Shown here: positions 526-20,563 of the stretch, piece after piece | How the letters are laid out: each line of letters begins with the position of its first letter | How positions within the stretch are numbered: the first letter of the stretch is position 1 | Virus record (IMG/VR): IMGVR_UViG_2850756110_000009 | DNA length: 29,734 bases | Reading direction: 5' to 3' (one strand) | DNA from: a virus | Taxonomy: Duplodnaviria; Heunggongvirae; Uroviricota; Caudoviricetes | Position numbers and translations under genes: made by a program | Notes under the pieces: model-generated | The model's input: only the letters and a program-made list of their open reading frames with translations | Database searches by the model: none | Told to the model about the DNA's origin: nothing

Positions 526-629
526 GACGAGTCATCCCTTAATTATTCTCACTTAACTGTAAGCGTACAGCCTGAACCGTCTGGTCAGAATCTGACGAAT
601 TAGACAAAGTGGTGTCCACCAAATAAGTA

Positions 630-1031
630 GTGGGAACCAAAGTGTCAGATATGCAGAAAAATGTGAATCCCGGCAGGCGAAAAGGCTGCCCTAATTATCC
701 TCCCGAATTTAAACAGCAGCTCGTTGCTGCCTCCTGTGAACCCGGGATATCCATCTCAAAACTTGCTCTTGAAAATGGCATTAACGCCAATCTGTTGTTC
801 AAATGGCGACAACAATGGCGCGAGGGAAAGCTGCTATTACCTTCTTCAGAGAGCCCCCAGCTACTTCCTGTGACTCTCGATGCAGCTGCCGAACAGCCAG
901 AATCGCTCGCAGAGGATCCGGAAACCCTCAGTATCAGCTGTGAGGTAACGTTCCGGCACGGGACGCTCCGCTTCAATGGCAATGTCAGCGAAAAGCTCCT
1001 GACTCTGCTGATACAGGAACTGAAGCGATGA
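630..1031 (+). CDS. IS66-family accessory protein TnpA (orfA)
   Basis: 133-aa ORF in first position of the three-gene IS66 arrangement; identical protein in all three copies. Confidence 0.8.
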   Translation: MGTKVSDMQKNVNPGRRKGCPNYPPEFKQQLVAASCEPGISISKLALENGINANLLFKWRQQWREGKLLLPSSESPQLLPVTLDAAAEQPESLAEDPETLSISCEVTFRHGTLRFNGNVSEKLLTLLIQELKR

Positions 1032-1375
1032 TCCCGTTACCTTCCGGGACCAAAATTTGGCTGGTTGCCGGTATCACCGATATGAGAAATGGCTTCAACG
1101 GCCTGGCGGCAAAGGTGCAGACGACGCTGAAAGACGATCCGATGTCAGGTCACGTTTTTATCTTCCGTGGGCGTAATGGCAGTCAGGTAAAGCTCCTCTG
1201 GTCTACCGGCGATGGACTGTGTCTGCTGACCAAACGGCTGGAGCGCGGCCGCTTCGCCTGGCCGTCAGCCCGGGATGGCAAAGTGTTCCTCACACCGGCA
1301 CAGCTGGCGATGCTCCTTGAAGGTATCGACTGGCGGCAGCCTAAAAGACTGCTTACGTCCCTGACTATGTTGTAA
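1028..1375 (+). CDS. IS66-family TnpB (orfB)
   Basis: 115-aa ORF MIPLPSGTKIWLVAGITDMRNGFNGLAAKVQ; its start overlaps the orfA stop, as expected for IS66 orfB. Confidence 0.85.
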   Translation: MIPLPSGTKIWLVAGITDMRNGFNGLAAKVQTTLKDDPMSGHVFIFRGRNGSQVKLLWSTGDGLCLLTKRLERGRFAWPSARDGKVFLTPAQLAMLLEGIDWRQPKRLLTSLTML

Positions 1376-1423
1376 GCCTCTTTATCCTGGTCGACGCTGA
1401 ATGAGCCTGGTAATATACCCGGT

Positions 1424-2962
1424 ATGAGCAGCTCACTTCCTGACGATATCAATGCACTGAAACGTCTCCTTGCCGAACAGGAGGCGCTGAACCGTGCCCT
1501 GCTGGAAAAGCTGAACGAGCGTGAACGCGAAATAGACCATCTGCAGGCACAGCTGGATAAGCTGCGCCGGATGAACTTCGGCAGCCGCTCCGAAAAAGTC
1601 TCCCGTCGTATCGCACAGATGGAAGCTGACCTGAAGGCACTTCAGAAAGAAAGTGATACCCTTACCGGTCGGGTTGACGACCCGGCCGTGCAGCGCCCGC
1701 TGCGTCAAACCCGCACCCGCAAACCGTTCCCCGAATCACTCCCCCGCGATGAAAAACGGCTGCTGCCGGCAGCGTCATGCTGCCCGGAATGTGGAGGCTC
1801 ACTGAGCTATCCGGGTGAGGATGCCGCCGAACAGCTGGAGTTGATGCGCAGCGTCTTCCGGGTTATCCGGACTGTACGTGAAAAGCATGCCTGTACTCAG
1901 TGCGATGCCATCGTGCAGGCCCCCGCGCCTTCACGGCCCATCGAGCGGGGTATCGCAGGACCGGGGCTGCTGGCCCGCGTGCTGATCTCAAAGTATGCAG
2001 AGCACACCCCGCTGTACCGCCAGTCTGAAATGTACGGCCGCCAGGGCGTGGAGCTGAGTCGTTCACTGCTGTCGGGCTGGGTGGATGCATGCTGCCGGCT
2101 ACTGTCACCGCTGGAAGAAGCGCTTCAGGACTATGTGCTGACTGACGGTAAGCTCCATGCTGATGACACGCCTGTCCCGGTGCTGTTGCCAGGCAATAAG
2201 AAAACGAAGACCGGGCGGTTATGGACCTACGTTCGTGACGACCGTAACGCCGGGTCAACGCTGGCGCCGGCGGTGTGGTTCGCTTACAGCCCGGACAGAA
2301 AAGGCATCCATCCGCAGACCCATCTTGCGGGGTTCAGTGGTGTACTGCAGGCGGATGCATACGCCGGGTTCAACGAGCTGTACCGGGATGGCCGGATAAC
2401 GGAAGCCGCCTGTTGGGCTCACGCCCGCCGTAAAATCCACGATGTGCACGTTCGCACCCCGTCAGCCCTGACGGAGGAAGCGCTGAAACGGATCGGCGAA
2501 CTGTACGCCATCGAGGCAGAGATAAGGGGAATGACGGCGGAGCAGCGCCTTGCCGAACGTCAGTTGAAAACGAAACCGCTGCTGAAATCCCTGGAAAGCT
2601 GGCTGCGTGAAAAGATGAAAACCCTGTCGCGACACTCAGAACTGGCGAAAGCGTTCGCATACGCCCTGAACCAGTGGCCGGCGCTGACGTACTATGCAGA
2701 TGATGGCTGGGCTGAGGCGGACAATAACATCGCTGAAAATGCGTTGCGGATGGTCAGTCTGGGCCGCAAAAACTACCTGTTCTTCGGTTCGGATCATGGA
2801 GGAGAGCGGGGAGCGCTGCTGTACAGCCTGATCGGGACGTGCAAACTGAACGGAGTGGAGCCAGAAAGCTACCTCCGCTATGTACTTGACGTCATAGCCG
2901 ACTGGCCGATAAACCGGGTCGGCGAACTGCTCCCCTGGCGCGTAGCACTGCCGACTGAATAA
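1424..2962 (+). CDS. IS66-family DDE transposase TnpC (orfC)
   Basis: 512-aa ORF with the CWAHARRK region typical of IS66 transposases; intact in all three copies. Confidence 0.9.
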
Positions 2963-2999
2963 CACATCCCCGTCAATACGGTTCTTGCTGCACGCTTAC

Positions 3000-3007
3000 G
3001 ATTTTGC
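3000..3007. repeat. Half of a split 8-bp target-site duplication GATTTTGC (partner, inverted, at 28473-28480)
   Basis: Octamer beside the right end of IS66 copy 1 equals the reverse complement of the octamer beside the left end of copy 3. Confidence 0.85.
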
Positions 3008-3415
3008 CAGCATGACTACCGGGGACAGGCGGCCCAGTGAGTCGGGACCAGCATTCCAGATACGACCGTTCCATTCAAACGTGAACGGCTTCGCCTCCTG
3101 TTCTGCGCGCCATGCTTCAATTTCCTGACGTCTGGCCTCTCTGGCCGCTTCCTGCATTTCTGGTGTCACAGTGAATGGGGCTATCTCACCCCATTTGCCG
3201 CTTTGCAGTTCCTGCCAGATTTGCTGACCCGTCGGAGCGACATCATCAGCGGTGGCTGTGTAGGGGACTGCCTGGTCCCTGTCGTCAAAAAAAACGTCAC
3301 AGTCTACTGCGCCACTTTCGGTATAACGGGGATTAATGATTTTTTTAGTTTCCACGGTGCATTCCTCACGATGTGCGAATAAAAAGCCCGGGCATTGCGC
3401 CAGAGACATGTGCAT
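3000..3415 (-). pseudogene. Tail-fibre assembly protein (Tfa-like), N-terminal 138 codons, cut by IS66 copy 1; C-terminal part lies at 28481-28688
   Basis: ORF ends ...SPVVMLAKS with the stop supplied by the IS end (TAA from GTAAGCG). Reading continues in frame across the 8-bp target duplication into 28481-28688 on the opposite strand. Confidence 0.8.
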
Positions 3416-4778
3416 CCGGCACCCCGGACAGGGCGCAATATGACCCCGGTAATGAATGCTCTGAACATCCCGTAATGAAAAATTGTGGGGATGCTATATA
3501 CGTTCCGGTGGGAGTACTGGGCACTGAAATCCCCACCGGTCCCAGTCGTGAGCCTCTGTATGACTGCCCCCTGACAAGTCTGATGACTTTATCACCGTCA
3601 GCTTCTCCCTGGTACGCAGCAATAATCAGCCCGCCAATGTCAGGGGCTCCCCATCTGTTGCGGACAGAGCTCGCCACGATTCTGTAAATAATATCTTCTG
3701 TGGTTATATTTATTTTCACCCAGTCAGTCAGTCTGGATATGGGCCAGTAGCAGTAGCGGGTGTGATAAATGGGGCCGTTAATGCCGTAAAAAGTAAGGGA
3801 TTTGGCTCTGTACCGCGGTTCTGTTGTCTCAGGGCGTGCATCAGTCCACCGGATGCTGAGCACCCCTTCAAACCGTGTGTCGGGTATGATGCCCAGGCGG
3901 CCAGCAACGGAATACTCACCTGGCAGCGCATTCCTTACCCAGGCCAGGAAATCACTCTTAGTGTCAAAACGGATAACATCTTCAGGCAGAAAAGCACACC
4001 CAAAGCCGAATGCGCCGGGTATCGCCAGACGGCCTTTTGTCCGGTCGTAAATGTCGCTCTGTGCTTCCATCGTGGCCGCACTTTTCAGCCCCAGATTATC
4101 CCGGGACTTCTGTTGTGCCTTTTCGCCTGCTGCTGCGATTTCTGACAGATGGTTAGCCATTTTCAGAGTGCCGGTAAGCGCAGCATCAATGTCATTTTTG
4201 GCCTGTTCTGCTGCGCGGGCATAACCTGCGGCATCCTGTGCGCTCTGTCCGGCTGCGGCTGCATTTGCTCCTGTGCTTGTCACATCTTCCGCAGTGGCCT
4301 TTCTGTCCTCAGCTGTGACGGTTGCATCCTGTCTGGCATTCTCCGCAAAACGTTGTGCATCATCACGGGCCGTTGCGGCTGCCGCCACATCCTGCGCCGT
4401 CTGCTGTGCGTTTCCGGCTGCGGCCCCGGCGCTCTGCTGCGCCTGCACCACCATTTCCTCAAAGCGTTTGACGACATCCGGTTTCAGGTCGCCCTCATCA
4501 GGAGCAATCAGAAAGTCATTCAGCGTGCCGGGCTTTGAGTCCTCATATACAGCAATGTCGCCAACGTTGTACTCGTTGTGCCAGCCCGGTTTCAGATACA
4601 CACCATATTTTCCAGTCCGCGCATGGAAACAGTATTCACCATCGTTTCCTGTCATCACATCAGCAACAGTGTGCATCACCACTTCCGGGGTGTTTACCCG
4701 GGATTTCAGAATAATATGGTATCCGGACATGGGGATACCTGCGCCATCAGTCAGCGCACCTGATATCACTACAGACAT
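3366..4778 (-). CDS. Side tail-fibre protein (lambda Stf-like N-terminal domain, Ala-rich central region)
   Basis: 470-aa ORF; segment IAVYEDSKPGTLNDFL matches the conserved Stf N-terminal motif ITVYEDSQPGTLNDFL; the stop overlaps the downstream tfa start. Confidence 0.7.
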   Translation of the reverse strand: MSVVISGALTDGAGIPMSGYHIILKSRVNTPEVVMHTVADVMTGNDGEYCFHARTGKYGVYLKPGWHNEYNVGDIAVYEDSKPGTLNDFLIAPDEGDLKPDVVKRFEEMVVQAQQSAGAAAGNAQQTAQDVAAAATARDDAQRFAENARQDATVTAEDRKATAEDVTSTGANAAAAGQSAQDAAGYARAAEQAKNDIDAALTGTLKMANHLSEIAAAGEKAQQKSRDNLGLKSAATMEAQSDIYDRTKGRLAIPGAFGFGCAFLPEDVIRFDTKSDFLAWVRNALPGEYSVAGRLGIIPDTRFEGVLSIRWTDARPETTEPRYRAKSLTFYGINGPIYHTRYCYWPISRLTDWVKINITTEDIIYRIVASSVRNRWGAPDIGGLIIAAYQGEADGDKVIRLVRGQSYRGSRLGPVGISVPSTPTGTYIASPQFFITGCSEHSLPGSYCALSGVPDAHVSGAMPGLFIRTS

Positions 4779-4801
4779 AGTTTTTCTCGCGATAAATTAA
4801 A

Positions 4802-5347
4802 TCAGGAAGAAATTTCCGGAGAGGCGGGCCATTCAATGGCGTTGTATGAGGTTTTATCAGTGATGACACTGAAATCCATCGCCTGCAGCGATTTCGCGTA
4901 AATGCGGTACGCTTTCAGTTTTTCCCGGTCTTCGTCGCTGATTAGCCCCAGCAGCAGGTCTTCTTCCCATTCCCCTGTCCGGGCACTGACCTGAGCCAGA
5001 AGGGCATCACGCTCATCTTCCGCTTTGAGTCTGTAGTCAAAGACAAATTCATCATTGCGGTAAAACCAGTAACCCGGCGCGGTAATGCGGCGGTTGGCGG
5101 TAATATCAGGAACTTCAATAACACTGGCGTTACGGGGTTCAATGCCTGTCACATCCTTACCGACCCACACCACGCGACCGTCTCCGGTGTAAGTTATTTT
5201 AATTGTGTCGCTGGCGAAATTCTTCAGCTCTTCATACCAGTTTTTTCCGTCTTCCGAAAAAAGCCAGGTGACATCATATTGTTTTGTCAGCTGATATTGT
5301 TCCACGGTTTTCGGATTGCCCGCAGTAATATTTTTTAAATGCAACAT
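4802..5347 (-). CDS. Tail-fibre assembly protein, P2 gpG-like
   Basis: 181-aa ORF [40 protein letters not shown] closely resembles the P2 G N-terminus ([40 protein letters not shown]). Confidence 0.8.
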   Translation of the reverse strand: [181 protein letters not shown]

Positions 5348-5349
5348 TG

Positions 5350-6734
5350 TTAAACACTCGCCACGTTATACCAGGTGCCATTAATCAGTTTCTGAAGCGG
5401 GCGGTAATACACGCCGTTGACGTTATCCGCTGAGTCACGGCCGGTATCCGATATCGCTATCCCTGACAGCCCGTGTCCCGAAGGTGCGCGAAATCTCCAC
5501 GAAACGGTGTTACTGCCGGGGCTGTAATACATTTCATGGCCATACCGTACATCCTGTACCCCCTCTGTTCGATATTTATAGCGGGCATCGAAGTTTCCGT
5601 AATTTAACGGAATTACCTGTCCGTTTACGGCGAACGTGATGCTGTTATCTGTATTCCTCTGGCTGAAAAAATGCCAGCCTGAATCATCGCCAAGCTCTGC
5701 AACAACAGACCTGGATGGATTACCCCACAAATAAAATGCTGCATTTTTCGTGGAGTTGTTGGCGCTGGATAACGTGAATTTTCTGGCAGTTCCGGCCTGA
5801 ATATTCTTAAAAGCAATAGCCACTCCATTCTGAAAGCGGAATACACGCTGACTATTAGCATAAACATCCAGAATACCGTCTCCATTCTGTTTAAATCCGG
5901 TGTCATTATCACCAAGAACAATTGAATTCCCCCCAGGGCGTTCTGAACGCCGATACCCAGCGCACCATTGACCTGCGAACCACCGCCAACAGACACTTTA
6001 TGCGACATGGATATTTCACCCGTCCGCAAATTAATGGTGAACGGGCGCAGGGGACCAATATCGCCATTTTCCCCCTGACCTTCACTGGTGGGAATAAGGT
6101 GCAGGCACTCTTCCGAACGACGAAAAATCAGGCCAAAAGCTTCGTTGAAAATCCTCAGCGCATTAACACCACGGATTTTCAGCTCTCCGGTTATTTTATC
6201 GCCTTCCCGATGAACATAGCGTTGATCTGACTGCTCTTTACTGTAAACCTGAAGATTATCCCGTGCCGTCCCTTTATTCTGAAGGTCTGACAGATTGTTC
6301 TTCTGCCGCAGGAATATCCTTTTCGGATCCTCAAGAAGATTTACCCAGCCCGCACTGTCGGAGCCTTCAGGATCGGTCAGGTTATCGTCTGTGGTATTCA
6401 GCCAGACCGCTGTTGTTGCGACTCCGGCGAGAATGGCTCCTTTTGCATATCCACCAATGGCCCCCGCAAAACCGGCATTATACGTGTACAAACCGCCAGC
6501 TTGGGCGAACCGTATTGCTGCGGTAATATCGTACATCAGACCGTTAAAATCCTTGCCGTGTGGCGGTATACCTCCCGCTGAGACCGCTGTCATGGTCACC
6601 GGAGGAAAACCTGAATCATACGCAGCATTACCGCTCTCTCTGGTCTGCTGTGTCGCCTTGTCCGGGATACGGTTTTTATCTCCGGTACTCGCAAAGGGGA
6701 CCGCCAGCTGGCGGGGTTTATCACTGGCCTTCAT
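5350..6734 (-). CDS. Tail-fibre protein (P2 H / Mu S position), apparent frameshift in a C6 run at 5929-5934
   Basis: ORFs 5625-6734 and 5350-5823 are the same gene in two frames. Adding one G to the G6 run (sense strand) joins ...VQNALGG to [43 protein letters not shown]. Confidence 0.65.
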
Positions 6735-7134
6735 TACGGGACTCCTTTAAAACTACTGAAACATAAACACCCGGCGGGGACGGCAGTGCACCCGACGACT
6801 GGATAATCGCCAGTTCTGCCAACGAGAGCGCGGACTCAAAGATGTAACTCATCCTCAGCCCACCATTATTCAGAACATAAGCCCGCCGTTTTTTTCCGAA
6901 CATAAATCTCAGCATCCGGTTAATATCCGGAACGGAACAGTCAGTAATGTTCGACATGGCTTTCATCAGTATCAGCCGCCGGTATACAGCATCAGACAGG
7001 TCAACAGTCCGGGTATCCGATTTTCCGTTGTAAAACGGTGCCTGATTAGACTGGCCCCCTGAATCTCCAGACAACCAGTATCACTTAAATAAGTGATAGT
7101 CTTAATACTAGTTTTTAGACTAGTCATTGGAGTA

Positions 7135-7503
7135 CAGATGATTGATGTCTTAGGGCCGGAGAAACGCAGACGGCGTACCACACAGGAAAAGATCGCAATT
7201 GTTCAGCAGAGCTTTGAACCGGGGATGACGGTCTCCCTAGTTGCCCGGCAACATGGTGTAGCAGCCAGCCAGTTATTTCTCTGGCGTAAGCAATACCAGG
7301 AAGGAAGTCTTACTGCTGTGGCCGCCGGAGAACAGGTTGTTCCTGCCTCTGAACTTGCTGCCGCCATGAAGCAGATTAAAGAACTCCAGCGCCTGCTCGG
7401 CAAGAAAACGATGGAAAATGAACTCCTCAAAGAAGCCGTTGAATATGGACGGGCAAAAAAGTGGATAGCGCACGCGCCCTTATTGCCCGGGGATGGGGAG
7501 TAA
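7135..7503 (+). CDS. IS2 OrfA (InsC-like)
   Basis: Translation [56 protein letters not shown] is the IS2 OrfA sequence; the track ORF starts 14 codons upstream at 7093. Confidence 0.85.
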
Positions 7504-8366
7504 GCTTAGTCAGCCGTTGTCTCCGGATGTCGCGTGCGCAGTTGCACGTCATTCTCAGACGAACCGATGACTGGATGGATGGCCGCCGCAGTCGTCACAC
7601 TGATGATACGGATGTGCTTCTCCGTATACACCATGTTATCGGAGAGCTGCCCACGTATGGTTATCGTCGGGTATGGGCGCTGCTTCGCAGACAGGCAGAA
7701 CTTGATGGTATGCCTGCGATCAATGCCAAACGTGTTTACCGGATCATGCGCCAGAATGCGCTGTTGCTTGAGCGAAAGCCTGCTGTACCGCCATCGAAAC
7801 GGGCACATACAGGCAGAGTGGCCGTGAAAGAAAGCAATCAGCGATGGTGCTCTGACGGGTTCGAGTTCTGCTGTGATAACGGAGAGAGACTGCGTGTCAC
7901 GTTCGCGCTGGACTGCTGTGATCGTGAGGCACTGCACTGGGCGGTGACTACCGGCGGCTTCAACAGTGAAACAGTACAGGACGTCATGCTGGGAGCGGTG
8001 GAACGCCGCTTCGGCAACGATCTTCCGTCGTCTCCAGTGGAGTGGCTGACGGATAATGGTTCATGCTACCGGGCTAATGAAACACGCCAGTTCGCCCGGA
8101 TGTTGGGACTTGAACCGAAGAACACGGCGGTGCGGAGTCCGGAGAGTAACGGAATAGCAGAGAGCTTCGTGAAAACGATAAAGCGTGACTACATCAGTAT
8201 CATGCCCAAACCAGACGGGTTAACGGCAGCAAAGAACCTTGCAGAGGCGTTCGAGCATTATAACGAATGGCATCCGCATAGTGCGCTGGGTTATCGCTCG
8301 CCACGGGAATATCTGCGGCAGCGGGCTTGTAATGGGTTAAGTGATAACAGATGTCTGGAAATATAG
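7461..8366 (+). CDS. IS2 OrfB transposase (InsD-like)
   Basis: 301-aa ORF with the IS3-family DDE region; overlaps orfA in the -1 frame as expected for IS2. Confidence 0.85.
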
Positions 8367-8663
8367 GGGCAAATCCACTGATTAAACGGACAGGGATCAT
8401 CCATTACCGGGGTGTCCATCCTGGACTCGCTGAAGCCCAGGTAATTAAAATCGTCCTTTACCGTCAGCCGGCGACTGACACCCACAATCTTTCCCCAGAC
8501 ATCAAGACCATACTTTTCTGCGGTATCGATGTTCCAGATAAGACCATAAAAATCACTGATAAAACTGTCGGGGGAAAGCGCTGCGTTAAAGCTGTTAATG
8601 AGGGCATTGAGTCGGGGGCTGGCAGCATACTGCGCAAGCACAGTGGCAGCCACATTCTGCACG

Positions 8664-9901
8664 TTATGCCTCCTGGAGTTTCACACTGATATCCGACACA
8701 TCCAGAACCGGAATCTCATCTATCCCGAAAGTGACAGCCGTTGTCCATGACGAACCGTCACGGCTCACAGTAAGGCCCAGAATATCAATATGTTCCGGAT
8801 CGGTTTTGTAAATGCCGGCATAGTAGCGCCCGGCAGAGACAACAGAGGCAACCCTTGCCCGCAGACCACCATCTGTACCATTAAATGCGTCCAGCACGGA
8901 TTGCTGTACCTGTCGGGTAATATCTGAAGGCAGGTAGTCACTTTTTTTCAGCGTCACACTGACATGCAGACTGACGGGTTTGAGTGTCTGCCAGCTGATT
9001 ACGTATTCAGGATACGGCGGATCGTACTCCTTATCTGCAACAGTGAACGTTGTGTTGCCATTCATATCAATACCCGGCGGAGCCTTACGCCAGATGGCCG
9101 CCGCGATATCTGCCGGGCTGCCGCCGTACACGCCAACATAAAGCGAACCGGGTGTTAATGGATACTGACTGACTCCGGCTTTTTGTTCTGTTTTTTTCGG
9201 ATTATGGGTGACGTAAACATCCACCACGTTTTCTACCGTGGAGAGTATTTCACCCCGGATGGCTTCCAGAATATTCCGGGCATTACGGGCAACTGAATTA
9301 CGTCGGCGGTTTTCAAAGTCCGCACGGGTTTCCTCATCGCTGCCCGGCACACCGGCACGGGCGTTAGTGACACCTGACCAGCCAGGTATTGCCTTATAAA
9401 TTTTATTCAGCGTCCCCACAGGACAGCCGACGGGGCCGGTGGACAAATTCAGAAATACCGCATCAACCTGCCCTGATGCGCCGATAGTGACGTCTGACTG
9501 ACATACTTATAACCGGCCTCATCCTGCCCCATACTGCCCGCCGGGATCAGCGTGCCAACCAGCCCGGTACAGGTCGCTGTTACTGTCGTACCTGTGGCCC
9601 CACGGCGCTCCAGGAAATAAATCCTGCCTATTGCATCCTGAAAGCGACCACTGGAAAAGTCAGGGTTGATCTGGTTAACGATATACAGCAACTGATCGTT
9701 TTTATCCGCAATAATGGCGCTTTCGCTGGATGCAAGTTGTCCCTGCGGACTGCTCAGACTGGTACTCATGGCCCCGCCCAGCGCCGCCGAAAAATCAGCA
9801 AGCCTGCCGCTCAGAATATCCGCTTCATCCGGCACATTCAGCCCGCTATCCGAAATCTGTACAGCGGGCACTGCGGTAGAAAAAGATTTATTTTCACTCA
9901 T
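8664..9901 (-). CDS. Baseplate J-like protein (P2 gpJ / Mu gp47 position), apparent frameshift near 9471-9502
   Basis: ORFs 9449-9901 and 8664-9446 are adjacent in different frames. One extra G in the G3 run (+ strand C3 at 9471-9473), or a third GTCA unit at 9495-9502, restores a single ORF of about 410 aa. Confidence 0.6.
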
Positions 9902-17793: not shown

Positions 17794-17830
17794 GTAAGCG
17801 TGCAGCAAGAACCGTATTGACGGGGATGTG

Positions 17831-19369
17831 TTATTCAGTCGGCAGTGCTACGCGCCAGGGGAGCAGTTCGCCGACCCGGTTTATCGGCCAGTCGGCTATG
17901 ACGTCAAGTACATAGCGGAGGTAGCTTTCTGGCTCCACTCCGTTCAGTTTGCACGTCCCGATCAGGCTGTACAGCAGCGCTCCCCGCTCTCCTCCATGAT
18001 CCGAACCGAAGAACAGGTAGTTTTTGCGGCCCAGACTGACCATCCGCAACGCATTTTCAGCGATGTTATTGTCCGCCTCAGCCCAGCCATCATCTGCATA
18101 GTACGTCAGCGCCGGCCACTGGTTCAGGGCGTATGCGAACGCTTTCGCCAGTTCTGAGTGTCGCGACAGGGTTTTCATCTTTTCACGCAGCCAGCTTTCC
18201 AGGGATTTCAGCAGCGGTTTCGTTTTCAACTGACGTTCGGCAAGGCGCTGCTCCGCCGTCATTCCCCTTATCTCTGCCTCGATGGCGTACAGTTCGCCGA
18301 TCCGTTTCAGCGCTTCCTCCGTCAGGGCTGACGGGGTGCGAACGTGCACATCGTGGATTTTACGGCGGGCGTGAGCCCAACAGGCGGCTTCCGTTATCCG
18401 GCCATCCCGGTACAGCTCGTTGAACCCGGCGTATGCATCCGCCTGCAGTACACCACTGAACCCCGCAAGATGGGTCTGCGGATGGATGCCTTTTCTGTCC
18501 GGGCTGTAAGCGAACCACACCGCCGGCGCCAGCGTTGACCCGGCGTTACGGTCGTCACGAACGTAGGTCCATAACCGCCCGGTCTTCGTTTTCTTATTGC
18601 CTGGCAACAGCACCGGGACAGGCGTGTCATCAGCATGGAGCTTACCGTCAGTCAGCACATAATCCTGAAGCGCTTCTTCCAGCGGTGACAGTAGCCGGCA
18701 GCATGCATCCACCCAGCCCGACAGCAGTGAACGACTCAGCTCCACGCCCTGGCGGCCGTACATTTCAGACTGACGGTACAGCGGGGTGTGCTCTGCATAC
18801 TTTGAGATCAGCACGCGGGCCAGCAGCCCCGGTCCTGCGATACCCCGCTCGATGGGCCGTGAAGGCGCGGGGGCCTGCACGATGGCATCGCACTGAGTAC
18901 AGGCATGCTTTTCACGTACAGTCCGGATAACCCGGAAGACGCTGCGCATCAACTCCAGCTGTTCGGCGGCATCCTCACCCGGATAGCTCAGTGAGCCTCC
19001 ACATTCCGGGCAGCATGACGCTGCCGGCAGCAGCCGTTTTTCATCGCGGGGGAGTGATTCGGGGAACGGTTTGCGGGTGCGGGTTTGACGCAGCGGGCGC
19101 TGCACGGCCGGGTCGTCAACCCGACCGGTAAGGGTATCACTTTCTTTCTGAAGTGCCTTCAGGTCAGCTTCCATCTGTGCGATACGACGGGAGACTTTTT
19201 CGGAGCGGCTGCCGAAGTTCATCCGGCGCAGCTTATCCAGCTGTGCCTGCAGATGGTCTATTTCGCGTTCACGCTCGTTCAGCTTTTCCAGCAGGGCACG
19301 GTTCAGCGCCTCCTGTTCGGCAAGGAGACGTTTCAGTGCATTGATATCGTCAGGAAGTGAGCTGCTCAT
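17831..19369 (-). CDS. IS66-family transposase TnpC (copy 2)
   Basis: 512-aa protein identical to the copy 1 orfC product. Confidence 0.9.
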
Positions 19370-19417
19370 ACCGGGTATATTACCAGGCTCATTCAGCGTC
19401 GACCAGGATAAAGAGGC

Positions 19418-19765
19418 TTACAACATAGTCAGGGACGTAAGCAGTCTTTTAGGCTGCCGCCAGTCGATACCTTCAAGGAGCATCGCCAGCTGTGCCGGTG
19501 TGAGGAACACTTTGCCATCCCGGGCTGACGGCCAGGCGAAGCGGCCGCGCTCCAGCCGTTTGGTCAGCAGACACAGTCCATCGCCGGTAGACCAGAGGAG
19601 CTTTACCTGACTGCCATTACGCCCACGGAAGATAAAAACGTGACCTGACATCGGATCGTCTTTCAGCGTCGTCTGCACCTTTGCCGCCAGGCCGTTGAAG
19701 CCATTTCTCATATCGGTGATACCGGCAACCAGCCAAATTTTGGTCCCGGAAGGTAACGGGATCAT
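19418..19765 (-). CDS. IS66-family TnpB (copy 2)
   Basis: Identical 115-aa product to copy 1. Confidence 0.85.
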   Translation of the reverse strand: MIPLPSGTKIWLVAGITDMRNGFNGLAAKVQTTLKDDPMSGHVFIFRGRNGSQVKLLWSTGDGLCLLTKRLERGRFAWPSARDGKVFLTPAQLAMLLEGIDWRQPKRLLTSLTML

Positions 19766-20163
19766 CGCTTCAGTTCCTGTATCAGCAGAGTCAGGAGCTT
19801 TTCGCTGACATTGCCATTGAAGCGGAGCGTCCCGTGCCGGAACGTTACCTCACAGCTGATACTGAGGGTTTCCGGATCCTCTGCGAGCGATTCTGGCTGT
19901 TCGGCAGCTGCATCGAGAGTCACAGGAAGTAGCTGGGGGCTCTCTGAAGAAGGTAATAGCAGCTTTCCCTCGCGCCATTGTTGTCGCCATTTGAACAACA
20001 GATTGGCGTTAATGCCATTTTCAAGAGCAAGTTTTGAGATGGATATCCCGGGTTCACAGGAGGCAGCAACGAGCTGCTGTTTAAATTCGGGAGGATAATT
20101 AGGGCAGCCTTTTCGCCTGCCGGGATTCACATTTTTCTGCATATCTGACACTTTGGTTCCCAC
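19762..20163 (-). CDS. IS66-family TnpA (copy 2)
   Basis: Identical 133-aa product to copy 1. Confidence 0.8.
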   Translation of the reverse strand: MGTKVSDMQKNVNPGRRKGCPNYPPEFKQQLVAASCEPGISISKLALENGINANLLFKWRQQWREGKLLLPSSESPQLLPVTLDAAAEQPESLAEDPETLSISCEVTFRHGTLRFNGNVSEKLLTLLIQELKR

Positions 20164-20563
20164 TACTTATTTGGTGGACACCACTTTGTCTAATTCGTCA
20201 GATTCTGACCAGACGGTTCAGGCTGTACGCTTACGCATCAGCGTGCCGGAAAGTTTTTGTAGCTGTTCAACAGTCGCGCCCTTAAACGAACCGCTACGTA
20301 ACCAGGCCGCCGATGGGGCAGGACTGAAACGGGAAAACAACAATTGCCCCGGCGTCCTGGTGGCATTTTTGAAGCCCTGGAAATAAAGCTGAGCGCGTGC
20401 GTACTCATCGGATAATGCACCAAAATACGCGGCCACATCATCCGGAGAGGAAAACGGAACCACAGTGCCGACCGGAAGTAACGGATTACTGGTCAACAGC
20501 AGGCCGTTAAGATCGACGGCATTACCCGCCACAGCCAGCACACCGGGATTTATCTGTACATCT

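Follow-up and report, generated by a model that had tools for sequence, protein, structure and literature searches.

The four genes at positions 3000 to 6734 of the window, the whole 29,734-nt stretch of DNA analysed here, are best explained as a conserved host-recognition module that encodes two receptor-binding fibres, each with its cognate chaperone, and that is now defunct; we place the probability of this reading at about 0.75. The genes all lie on the minus strand, in the order fibre 1, Caudo_TAP chaperone, fibre 2 and DUF4376 gene, at the end of an insertion-sequence-riddled contractile-tail prophage remnant in a Shigella-type genome. The original prediction of two tandem fibre and chaperone cassettes survives in so far as each of two fibre genes has a small gene directly behind it, whereas the second chaperone is not a Tfa and fibre 1 is frameshifted. 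The two small genes are separate, 1.4 kb apart, rather than parts of one fused gene. The features discussed below are as follows.

559..2999, plus strand: IS66-family element, copy 1, abutting the cut DUF4376 gene
3000..3355, minus strand: 5' two-thirds of the DUF4376 gene (first ~118 codons), presumed fibre 2 chaperone, cut at 3000 by IS66
3366..4778, minus strand: fibre 2, 470 aa, with a lambda Stf-type collar domain at the N-terminus
4802..5347, minus strand: 181-aa ORF, a Caudo_TAP protein (P2 gpG / Mu U / U' type) that serves fibre 1 as tail-fibre assembly chaperone
5350..6734, minus strand: fibre 1, baseplate-type tail fibre with a P2 H / Mu S-like tip
6721..8662, minus strand: baseplate wedge gene (DUF2612, XM1 gp17 homologue), just upstream of fibre 1
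26032..28472, minus strand: IS66-family element, copy 3, in the opposite orientation to copy 1, abutting the DUF4376 3' piece; inversion partner
28473..28688, plus strand: 3' third of the DUF4376 gene, moved and inverted
28688..28798, plus strand: relic of a Caudo_TAP gene, C-terminal half, 53% identical to Mu U aa 86-145

A baseplate-type fibre and its Caudo_TAP chaperone

The matches of both fibres and of the Caudo_TAP chaperone in Pfam, in the PDB and by identity score far above chance. The tip of fibre 1 (aa 255-461) is 61% identical to P2 gpH 477-669 by BLASTP, the fibre matches the Mu fibre S (PDB 5yvq_A, E=2e-14), and its shaft (aa 142-304) shares 81% identity with phiP27 L54. The first ~140 aa are specific to the backbone, and the N-terminal anchor that P2 gpH possesses (PF12571) was not found in fibre 1 by Pfam search. 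The downstream 181-aa protein was correctly predicted to be a gpG-like chaperone: it belongs to Caudo_TAP (E=1.7e-25), shares 41% identity with both P2 gpG and Mu U and 46% with Mu U', and finds Mu Tfa (PDB 5yvq_B) at E=5.5e-39. Fibre 1 and its chaperone both match the solved Mu fibre-Tfa complex. The proposed comparison with the SfV and e14 fibre regions gave no protein matches at E<1e-3.

Fibre 1 presumably docks on the DUF2612 wedge protein, which matches XM1 gp17 (7kh1) at E=3.9e-8. By analogy with Vibrio myophage XM1, where the baseplate spike gp18 sits on wedge gp17, the N-terminus of fibre 1 would attach to this wedge. In this reading its tip is folded by the Caudo_TAP chaperone. The wedge gene itself is split by IS2 (~7056-8377) into 6721-7074 and 8291-8662, and the list of genes broken by IS2, IS66 or a stop codon extends to those for the sheath and baseplate J, in addition to the DUF4376 gene. 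Head genes are absent from the prophage in the window. The prophage is dead and the fibre module in the window does not work.

A second fibre with a lambda-type collar domain

Fibre 2 begins 23 nt after the Tfa stop codon; its collar domain (aa 1-131) leads into a coiled coil rich in Ala and Gln, and aa ~231-470 form the C-terminal tip. The lambda Stf-like N-terminal domain proposed for this 470-aa ORF is borne out by the assignment of residues 1-131 to Pfam phage_tail_N (E=3.4e-67, 225 bits). Residues 1-92 match the Ur-lambda StfN collar (9e7m, E=4e-15), residues 1-190 match the XM1 gp40 collar spike (7kjk_A3, E=3e-8), and the N-domain is 42% identical to the collar domain of lambda Stf; the distal part of fibre 2 does not resemble the C-terminal part of lambda Stf (orf-314). 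Fibre 2 has an Ig-like collar domain of lambda Stf / XM1 gp40 type joined to a different tip. It resembles the lambda Stf-Tfa system (Ur-lambda; 9e7m) in having a collar domain, a coiled coil, a tip and a chaperone gene directly downstream, but the lambda chaperone is a Caudo_TAP protein (Tfa), whereas the putative one of fibre 2 is a DUF4376 protein.

The collar domain of lambda binds the junction of tail tube and gpM, and in the myovirus XM1 the homologous domain is mounted on the neck via gp40, so both solved homologues dock on tail or neck rings (PMC12617516, PMC10457771). The collar site of lambda is covered on a contractile tail. Since the window virion would be contractile-tailed, the lambda docking site at the gpV/gpM junction would not be exposed in the same way. 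The collar domain of fibre 2 is 78% identical to that of phiP27 and 97% identical to the copy in a lambdoid Shigella/EIEC prophage (L018), and no similarity was detectable between the neck, sheath and baseplate proteins of the window prophage and those of phiP27. Such conservation across unrelated backbones is hard to reconcile with a backbone-specific docking site. Docking on the neck as in XM1 is suggested as the best analogy, though the match of the tail terminator to XM1 gp5 is weak (E=0.6). With a wedge homologous to gp17 (7kh1) and a fibre 2 N-domain homologous to the neck-binding domain of gp40 (7kjk, E=2-3e-8), both phages would carry two receptor-binding sets on different anchors, although the XM1 proteins are spikes rather than fibres with chaperones, and gp40 is encoded apart from the baseplate genes.

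Disruption and presumed role of the DUF4376 gene

An IS66 insertion cut the DUF4376 gene, and an inversion between two IS66 copies then left its 3' end 25 kb from the rest. The 8-bp target duplication is found at 3000-3007 (GATTTTGC) and again, in reverse complement, at 28473-28480; the flanks of IS66 copy 1 differ (ACTTAACT / GATTTTGC), which identifies this copy as recombinant. The likely start of the gene is the GTG at 3355, with a GAGGA ribosome-binding site ahead of it. The joined pieces encode 187 aa, or 207 aa from an upstream ATG, and the 207-aa reading is 93% identical to an intact EIEC orthologue. The original view of a split Tfa for fibre 2 is thus right about the split (3000-3355 and 28473-28688) and wrong about the family. 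Assignment to Caudo_TAP or lambda Tfa was rejected because Pfam assigns DUF4376, a domain that occupies the C-terminal half of the protein with 60.2 bits (Pfam cut-off 25). Directly after the DUF4376 stop codon lies the Caudo_TAP relic, whose match is interrupted by stop codons on its upstream side; it is the scar of a past recombination.

Experiments have established DUF4376 proteins as fibre chaperones elsewhere: in the Alteromonas phages V22 and A5, as well as in Campylobacter CJIE1, fibres require them or interact with them (PMC7289586, PMC10579305, PMC7882524). V22 gp27, A5 gp9 and the gene that follows the CJIE1 H-fibre share with the window protein the Pfam DUF4376 C-terminal half, a length of ~190 aa, a variable N-terminal part and a position directly after a fibre gene, but no similarity is detectable outside the domain, and the window protein is a putative chaperone. 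In 32 non-redundant pairs, the identity of the fibre 2 tip co-varies with that of the DUF4376 N-terminal part (r=0.86), a correlation that may partly reflect linkage because the two segments are adjacent; the relation is weak between tip and C-terminal part (r=0.33) and between fibre N-domain and DUF4376 N-terminal part (r=0.13). The family phrog_11571 matches both the N-terminal part of the Caudo_TAP protein and the C-terminal part of the DUF4376 protein, which indicates equivalence of these domains. Profile comparison and structure searches linked DUF4376 neither to Mu Tfa nor to intramolecular chaperones; the structure model used a shallow alignment of 25 sequences at >=71% identity and reached a pLDDT of 82. 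We presume, by analogy with the phages above, that the window protein is the chaperone of fibre 2: its variable N-terminal part would recognise the tip, and its conserved helical C-terminal part would presumably drive trimerisation.

Purifying selection acts on the collar domain as well as on the DUF4376 gene, with dN/dS of 0.03-0.09 for the former among myovirus-resident copies, and 0.10-0.21 for the latter in all divergent pairs (0.42 in one close pair).

Distribution of the block and placement of the second fibre

The same four genes occur in identical order in phiP27 (L54-L57), Rac-SA53 (tail1-4), vB_Apl-pPE4 (gp67-70) and EIEC strains CFSAN029787, RMDEC465 and VL40. In the Stx2e phage phiP27 (NC_003356) they lie at the right end of the genome, as in this prophage, with identities of 81% for the fibre 1 shaft, 74% for Tfa, 46% for fibre 2 overall (78% in its N-domain) and 73% for the DUF4376 protein. 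The two differ in the tips of both fibres and in their backbones, phiP27 having a Mu-type baseplate and neck and the window prophage an XM1/E217-type tail. The phiP27 block is intact and lacks the Tfa relic and ipaH, whereas that of the window is disrupted by insertion sequences.

In a survey of 80 viral contigs, a Caudo_TAP gene directly preceded the Stf-N fibre in 37 of 39 myovirus-context loci. Counting loci of every context, a Caudo_TAP gene stood upstream in 45, and in 41 of these the spacer measured 23 nt. The gene after the Stf-N fibre, where visible, encoded a DUF4376 protein in 22 loci and a Caudo_TAP protein in 2. The block is conserved on several backbones, namely myoviruses of the XM1/DUF2612, Rac-SA53, Mu/phiP27 and P2 types, and it is found also in lambdoid prophages; in lambdoid J-Lom-Stf loci, the position of lambda's Tfa is held by DUF4376 (19 loci) or Caudo_TAP (6 loci). 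Tips of the fibre 2 type (35-49% identity) are also fused to the P2 gpH-type anchor PF12571 or, in phage 18-1-2, to another N-terminus without an assigned family, and a DUF4376 gene followed these tips in every case checked. The P2/HP1-like prophage L103 has the order fibre A, Caudo_TAP, fibre B, DUF4376; its fibre A shares 75% identity with aa 144-459 of window fibre 1, and its DUF4376 protein shares 70% with that of the window. Both distal fibre parts and both chaperones thus recur on at least five backbones with different N-terminal anchors, in agreement with the dual fibre set or modular exchange originally envisaged.

The same distribution bears on whether fibre 2 belongs to the myovirus virion at all. 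It could be a lambdoid side-fibre cassette that was brought in by recombination within the conserved Tfa gene, stays outside the virion together with DUF4376 and owes its intactness solely to continuing exchange with lambdoid prophages. The siphovirus-specific tube/gpM surfaces bound by the lambda domain would fit this, as would the nearly identical cassettes in lambdoid prophages (L018 and L046; 97% in the collar domain), the constant 23-nt junction, pointing to a single ancestral joint that recombination has spread, the downstream Tfa relic as a trace of illegitimate recombination in the neighbourhood, and the fact that the backbones carrying the cassette share no neck or baseplate proteins. 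We consider it unlikely, however, given the low dN/dS between myovirus-resident collar domains, the intact ORFs in at least 22 myovirus-context loci and in the viable phage phiP27, and the homologous domain on the neck of XM1. P2/HP1-like prophages, moreover, keep the second tip and DUF4376 on a P2-type baseplate anchor, which argues that the second fibre is wanted and not merely carried.

A branched fibre, in which the collar domain of fibre 2 docks on fibre 1, at its shaft or its Tfa-capped tip, instead of on the tail, would make the cassette backbone-independent, because its docking partner would be encoded in the module. The collar clade always stands second, directly after Caudo_TAP (37 of 39 myovirus-context loci), also in lambdoid prophages, where the lambda-type collar of first fibres is ~43% identical to the second-position type; and the fibre 1 shaft, Tfa and fibre 2 N-domain are conserved at 74-81% between phiP27 and the window on unrelated backbones. 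Common descent explains the constant junction equally well, however, both solved collar homologues dock on rings of the tail or neck, and the second fibre of L103-L106 uses a baseplate anchor, all of which makes branching improbable.

Frameshift in fibre 1 and the question of a switch

The H-like fibre gene expected at 5350-6734 (1385 nt) holds for its tip but is not a single ORF: a -1 frameshift within a C/G run of 6 bases (5929-5934) splits it into 5625-6734 (369 aa, with an out-of-frame tail) and 5350-5823 (157 aa). In the near-identical assembly GCA_900618175.1, the run has 7 bases and fibre 1 is an intact 461-aa protein. Across 12.8 kb, this assembly and the window differ by 0 mismatches and 3 indels, all of them C-runs shorter in the window and all breaking ORFs; the other two single-base losses are in the chromosomal gene zitB and the sheath-initiator gene. 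This shared pattern points to sequencing error and not to regulation, and the frameshift is most likely a sequencing or assembly artefact, although it could also be a genuine mutation.

The position of the break in a homopolymer might otherwise speak for phase variation of fibre 1 by G7/G6 slippage, and a pinE pseudogene just past ipaH in the related EIEC prophage VL40 for an ancestral Pin-type inversion working from outside the window. Either form of switch is highly improbable in view of the losses in zitB and the sheath-initiator gene and of the region past the window end, where ipaH is followed in the source lineage by pgl and ybhD and by no recombinase. The inversion system is absent from the window: tblastn with Mu Gin gave no match, and no crossover repeats were found in 2900-7200, where the longest inverted repeat has 25 nt at 72% complementarity. 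Together with the co-directional genes, this upholds the earlier statement that the region is not a Gin/Pin-type switch. Mu G, P1 C and e14 P (Gin/Cin/Pin) resemble it in the adjacency of two fibre tips and two chaperones, but both sets in the window are complete genes in the same orientation, without crossover sites or invertase; Mu S-U likewise differs by its invertible segment and gin.

Proposed function of the module

The late operon of a temperate myovirus with an XM1/E217 'simple contractile tail' would have its distal end here, and the tip of fibre 2 would be folded by the DUF4376 chaperone. Known already from phiP27 and from many prophages of E. coli, the block is ordinary, and its gene order and conservation indicate an inherited, fixed four-gene module rather than a local peculiarity. 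Both fibres may have been mounted on one virion, and such a phage would have had two receptor specificities together, with no alternation by inversion.

Two fibre genes and their chaperone genes

The four genes of the fibre module are co-directional, and the original prediction saw in them two tail-fibre plus chaperone cassettes in tandem, in dual or modular use. This interpretation holds, as the pairing is kept while the anchors are exchanged on several tail backbones; the observation itself calls for three corrections, which concern a frameshift in fibre 1, the family of the second chaperone and the split of its gene.

Genes of the fibre module
5625-6734 and 5350-5823, minus strand: overlapping ORFs of 369 and 157 aa that span fibre 1
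4802-5347, minus strand: Caudo_TAP gene, 181 aa (Pfam PF02413, E=1.7e-25)
3366-4778, minus strand: fibre 2, 470 aa (Pfam phage_tail_N, PF08400, on residues 1-131, E=3.4e-67)
2996-3415, minus strand: truncated DUF4376 ORF, 139 aa, ending at an IS66-family element

The H-like fibre gene proposed at 5350-6734 is not one ORF in the window, where it is frameshifted; the intact 466-aa orthologue of E. coli RMDEC465 makes the stretch one gene minus one base in a G-run. With the base restored, fibre 1 has 461 aa in three parts, i.e., a backbone-specific N-terminus (aa 1 to ~140), a shaft (aa 142-304) with 81% identity to phiP27 L54, and a tip with 61% identity to P2 gpH 477-669, which bears out the H-like character. 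Fibre 1 also matches the solved Mu fibre 5yvq_A (E=2e-14), and its tip is, by these similarities, evidently homologous to the receptor-binding tip of the P2 gpH and Mu S baseplate fibres. The N-terminal 177 aa matched only phrog_11982 and phrog_12796 in PHROG, and Pfam gave no match in fibre 1 to the P2-type N-terminal anchor PF12571 (DUF3751).

The sister assembly GCA_900618175.1, found by exact-protein look-up, has IS insertions and a zitB flank identical to those of the window, and its fibre 1 is intact at 461 aa. A 12.8-kb comparison of the two assemblies gave 0 mismatches and 3 single-base indels. In every case a C-run (at 39, ~5928 (5928-5934) and ~10118) has one base fewer in the window, and the indels break the ORFs of zitB, fibre 1 and the sheath initiator. 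Because the only differences are such ORF-breaking C-run losses, the frameshift is most probably an assembly artefact from homopolymer under-calling in the window assembly; a programmed frameshift or real decay is a less likely source of the two overlapping ORFs.

The gpG-like chaperone predicted at 4802-5347 was confirmed. The 181-aa protein scores 90.2 bits with the Caudo_TAP model (cut-off 22.1), has 41% identity with P2 gpG and Mu U and 46% with Mu U', and matches Mu Tfa 5yvq_B (E=5.5e-39); these similarities assign it to the Caudo_TAP tail fibre assembly proteins.

The lambda Stf-like N-terminal domain expected in fibre 2 was also recovered, with 225 bits for phage_tail_N on residues 1-131 against a cut-off of 26.6. 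The first 121 residues have 42% identity with the lambda Stf N-terminus, residues 1-92 match StfN, the collar chain in the structure of Ur-lambda (9e7m, E=4e-15), and for residues 1 to ~190 the match is gp40, which forms the collar spike in Vibrio myophage XM1 (7kjk_A3, E=2-3e-8). The alternative that the 470-aa protein is a non-fibre tail protein fails against these matches, which identify it as a fibre at the level of sequence. Beyond the collar domain follow an Ala/Gln-rich coiled coil and a tip of ~240 aa. The collar domain is common to fibre 2 and the lambda Stf-type side fibres; unlike these, fibre 2 has no similarity to the lambda Stf distal part (orf-314) and is followed by a DUF4376 gene in place of a Caudo_TAP Tfa gene. 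Homologues of the tip (35-49% identity, full coverage) are fused to other N-termini, including the P2 gpH-type anchor PF12571. Among myovirus-resident copies the collar domain is under strong purifying selection (dN/dS 0.03-0.09). The fibre regions of SfV and e14, suggested for comparison in the original prediction, gave no protein matches at E<1e-3.

In Escherichia phage 18-1-2 (OK136180.1), a ~79-kb phiTE-like phage, a fibre with a fibre-2-related tip (31% identity) and its DUF4376 gene occupy 4001-5820 among head genes, with the major capsid protein gene on one side and a head-fibre gene on the other. This gene position hints at a head- or neck-mounted fibre.

A Gin/Pin/Cin-type invertible fibre switch, already discounted in the original prediction, can be ruled out. 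The module genes are all on the minus strand, tblastn with Mu Gin found no match in the window, and the search for direct and inverted repeats returned only short ones at chance level, the best inverted repeat being 25 nt with 72% complementarity. An inversion has moved the DNA originally downstream of the module to 28473 and beyond, where it continues past the window end. At locus L099, from the same lineage, the 3' part of the DUF4376 gene is followed by a Tfa relic, a complete 608-aa ipaH and then chromosomal pgl and ybhD, with no recombinase beyond ipaH. A pinE-like invertase pseudogene with 77% identity to Mu Gin and an internal stop lies just past ipaHb at the prophage end in the related EIEC strain E. 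coli VL40 (NZ_CM177011.1; 3660-4214 of locus L009), and was seen in VL40 only.

The DUF4376 protein as predicted chaperone of fibre 2

The second fibre had been credited with its own, split Tfa. The gene is indeed split by the inversion; its product is a DUF4376 protein, not a Caudo_TAP protein. The truncated 139-aa ORF reaches 23.1 bits with the DUF4376 model, under the cut-off of 25, and BLASTN against the intact locus of EIEC CFSAN029787 places the rest of the gene on the opposite strand at 28473-28688, the two pieces (3000-3355 and 28473-28688) overlapping by 8 bp. Both pieces adjoin IS66 ends, and the 8 bp GATTTTGC stand in inverted orientation at both junctions. It follows that an IS66 insertion duplicated an 8-bp target in the gene, and that the segment between this IS66 and another, inverted copy was later flipped when the two recombined.

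The gene lies 10 nt after the fibre-2 stop codon. Reconstructed, it encodes 207 aa from an upstream ATG or, more likely, 187 aa from GTG 3355, which has a GAGGA ribosome-binding site in front of it; in the structure model, residues 1-19 of the longer form are disordered, and phiP27 L57 starts at the equivalent of its residue 21. The reconstructed protein has 93% identity with the EIEC orthologue and 73% with phiP27 L57, and scores 60.2 bits with Pfam DUF4376 (PF14301; cut-off 25). Membership of the Caudo_TAP/Tfa family is ruled out: neither the truncated nor the reconstructed protein has a Pfam match to Caudo_TAP (PF02413), BLASTP found none to gpG, U, U' or lambda Tfa, and hhalign gave a probability of 0.6% between the two family profiles.

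Position, co-variation, domain equivalence, selection and experiments in other phages all point to this protein as the predicted chaperone of fibre 2. The DUF4376 protein gp27 of V22 is essential for active fibres, gp9 of A5 forms a complex or 'cap' with its fibre, and the H-fibre of CJIE1 needs the downstream DUF4376 gene (PMC7289586, PMC10579305, PMC7882524, cited jointly); a need for the protein in fibre folding or activity is shown for V22 gp27 and the CJIE1 protein only. Among 80 surveyed viral contigs that encode a fibre-2 N-domain relative, DUF4376 came directly after the fibre in at least 41 loci and Caudo_TAP in 8, and the two never stood there together. Lambdoid J-Lom-Stf loci carry DUF4376 in the exact place of lambda Tfa. 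PHROG 11571 has matches in both chaperones, in the N-part of the Caudo_TAP one and in the C-part of the DUF4376 one; therefore, there are proteins with a DUF4376 domain in place of the conserved Tfa C-domain.

Across 32 non-redundant pairs, identity in the last 150 fibre residues correlated with that in the DUF4376 N-part (Pearson r=0.86, to which the physical adjacency of the two regions contributes) and weakly with that in the C-part (0.33), and the fibre N-domain showed no correlation with the N-part (0.13). Mu Tfa and Pam3 gp25 have been described as modular in this same way. The DUF4376 gene also stays directly next to fibres with the same tip on other anchors, both with PF12571 (loci L103-L106; 70-71% identity with the window protein) and in phage 18-1-2, where the N-terminus has no assigned family (36% identity). 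Its dN/dS is 0.10-0.21 in all divergent pairs and 0.42 in the close pair of the window and CFSAN029787.

Decay of the prophage and the neighbouring ipaH gene

The module in the window is defunct: IS66 disrupts the DUF4376 gene, and the adjoining baseplate genes are damaged.

Insertion sequences, damaged genes and relics
559-2999 (plus strand), 17794-20234 (minus strand) and 26032-28472 (minus strand): copies 1, 2 and 3 of an IS66-family element of 2.44 kb
6721-7074 and 8291-8662: DUF2612 wedge gene just upstream of fibre 1, split by IS2 (~7056-8377)
8664-9901: baseplate J gene, in-frame stop at 9449-9451, leaving ORFs of 150 and 260 aa
22846-23349, 24266-25530 and 25475-25918: former left end of the prophage, with IS3-family transposase pieces and a 147-aa integrase N-terminal fragment
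28688-28798: Caudo_TAP relic
28868-29734: convergent ipaH gene, just behind the DUF4376 gene (608 aa in the same lineage)

The baseplate J stop is shared by GCA_900618175.1, and the intact protein has 413 aa in CFSAN029787. IS66 copy 2 lies inside the sheath gene with an intact 8-bp duplication, GCATCAGC. The flanks of copies 1 and 3 do not match (ACTTAACT/GATTTTGC and GATTTTGC/TCTGAGAC), which shows that about 3000-26031 was inverted and that at least one further rearrangement took place. Other genomes (L100-L102) have the order ybgS-IS66-DUF4376-3'-ipaH-pgl instead. The place of the early genes is taken by the integrase fragment and IS pieces only, and no head genes (portal, terminase, capsid) were found in the ORFs examined. 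The closest full-length protein relatives come from Shigella flexneri, S. sonnei, S. dysenteriae, S. boydii and EIEC.

The relic before ipaH matches Mu U aa 86-145; several other prophages have a second relic piece, matching aa 130-175, ~2.9 kb further on. An ipaH gene thus positioned inside a Caudo_TAP relic is found at loci L019, L046, L052, L054, L076, L077 and L098, and XM1-type, Mu-type and lambdoid backbones all have the DUF4376-relic-ipaH unit. From this distribution, ipaH paralogues seem to have spread by recombination in fibre modules.

One pairing on several tail backbones

Phages phiP27 (L54-L57), Rac-SA53 (tail1-4) and vB_Apl-pPE4 (gp67-70) and several EIEC chromosomes share the gene order fibre 1, Caudo_TAP, Stf-N fibre, DUF4376. 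The contig survey located the block on XM1/DUF2612-type, Rac-SA53-type, Mu/phiP27-type and P2-type baseplates and also behind the Stf-Tfa pair of lambdoid prophages. A Caudo_TAP gene stands directly upstream of the Stf-N fibre in 37 of the 39 myovirus-context loci, and in 41 of the 45 loci with an upstream Caudo_TAP gene, 23 nt separate the stop codon of that gene from the start of fibre 2. The record of the phage vB_Apl-pPE4 (PP818812.1), which has 85% DNA identity with the window fibre module over 1.3 kb and the Rac-SA53 gene order, names an Actinobacillus host, an assignment that may deserve checking.

Anchors are exchanged around this pairing in two ways. The P2/HP1-like prophages L103-L106 (E. 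coli and E. albertii contigs) encode fibre A, Caudo_TAP, fibre B and DUF4376, with the same two distal fibre parts and two chaperones and with a P2 gpH-type anchor (PF12571) on both fibres; fibre A has 75% identity with aa 144-459 of window fibre 1. Fibres A and B of these prophages would compete for the same baseplate sites. Four lambdoid viral contigs (L018, L046, L058 and L062) carry two Stf-type fibres in tandem, in the order J-Lom-Stf, Caudo_TAP, second fibre, DUF4376. Their first Stf has a lambda-type collar domain (88-100% identity with lambda) and their second fibre a collar domain of the other clade (~43% identity with the lambda type); in L018 and L046 the tip of the first Stf is 91% identical to that of window fibre 1. 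Because the same tips and chaperones stay paired while the anchors are swapped, the comparison supports a dual fibre set, with two probable receptor-binding sets conserved together, over a recombination accident.

Promoter and terminator scans of 2900-7200 and the intact orthologous region found nothing that clearly marks off one cassette from the other as a unit. Promoter-like sites numbered no more than expected from shuffles. Terminator-like sites in window 2900-7200 exceeded the expectation (8 against 3.9 +/- 1.6), and most of them lie inside coding regions.

Tail type and attachment of the two fibres

The host element is a myovirus, since it encodes a sheath (DUF3383), a sheath initiator, baseplate J and a DUF2612 wedge, and its tail belongs to the 'simple myovirus' type of XM1, E217 and Pam3. 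Further tail parts are a neck terminator, a collar protein like E217 gp28, a plug like Pam3 gp18 and a hub like E217 gp41. For the wedge protein the match is XM1 gp17 (7kh1, 7kh1_A2; E=3.9e-8), and the tail terminator matches XM1 gp5 only weakly (E=0.6).

The baseplate spikes of XM1, gp18, are held by gp17, the product of the neighbouring gene, and its gp40 attaches to the neck through the N-terminal ~100 residues, which bind at head completion protein gp4 and tail terminator gp5 (PMC10457771). The collar of Ur-lambda, located at the gpV/gpM junction, is made of twelve StfN domains (PMC12617516). The window has homologues of the wedge gp17 and the collar-spike N-domain of the XM1-like two-site adsorption apparatus. 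By analogy, the DUF2612 wedge would carry fibre 1, and fibre 2 would sit on a ring-shaped collar, for which the neck is the most plausible site. This arrangement is weakened by the identity of the collar domain with two other copies: 78% with that of phiP27, a phage in which the neck, sheath and baseplate proteins have no detectable similarity to their counterparts in the window prophage, and 97% with that of the lambdoid Shigella/EIEC prophage L018. These identities leave room for a docking surface of a generic kind, for docking of the collar domain on fibre 1 or its Tfa, and for the fibre 2 cassette being a passenger on some backbones.

A bolder reading, to which we give a probability of about one in eight, is that the second-position collar fibre and its DUF4376 chaperone are a portable, backbone-independent add-on receptor-binding cassette. 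One anchor-domain clade (78-97% identity) occurs directly after Caudo_TAP in four unrelated backbones with contractile tails and also on the non-contractile tails of lambdoid prophages, where the first fibre already carries the different, lambda-type collar domain. If such a portable cassette exists, its anchor would dock on something common to all contexts, either a generic hexameric ring surface or the Tfa-capped fibre 1, giving a branched fibre; either mode would be an attachment principle undescribed for temperate coliphages.

Implications

The block in the window adds one more copy, a decayed one, of a module that phiP27 and many annotated prophages already carry; its components come from known families, and it tells little of host biology beyond documenting prophage decay. 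Literature searches found no description of the tandem module as such. Many temperate E. coli and Shigella myoviruses encode a lambda Stf-type collar fibre; its position on the contractile tail is a concrete target for cryo-EM and is relevant to host-range engineering. Shigella and EIEC ipaH effector genes travel within a Tfa relic directly behind the module, which offers them a simple recombinational route among unrelated prophages. Comparative support from more than 60 loci and three kinds of N-terminal anchor suggests that DUF4376 proteins, still labelled 'domain of unknown function' in RefSeq, are the cognate chaperones of one class of fibre tips.
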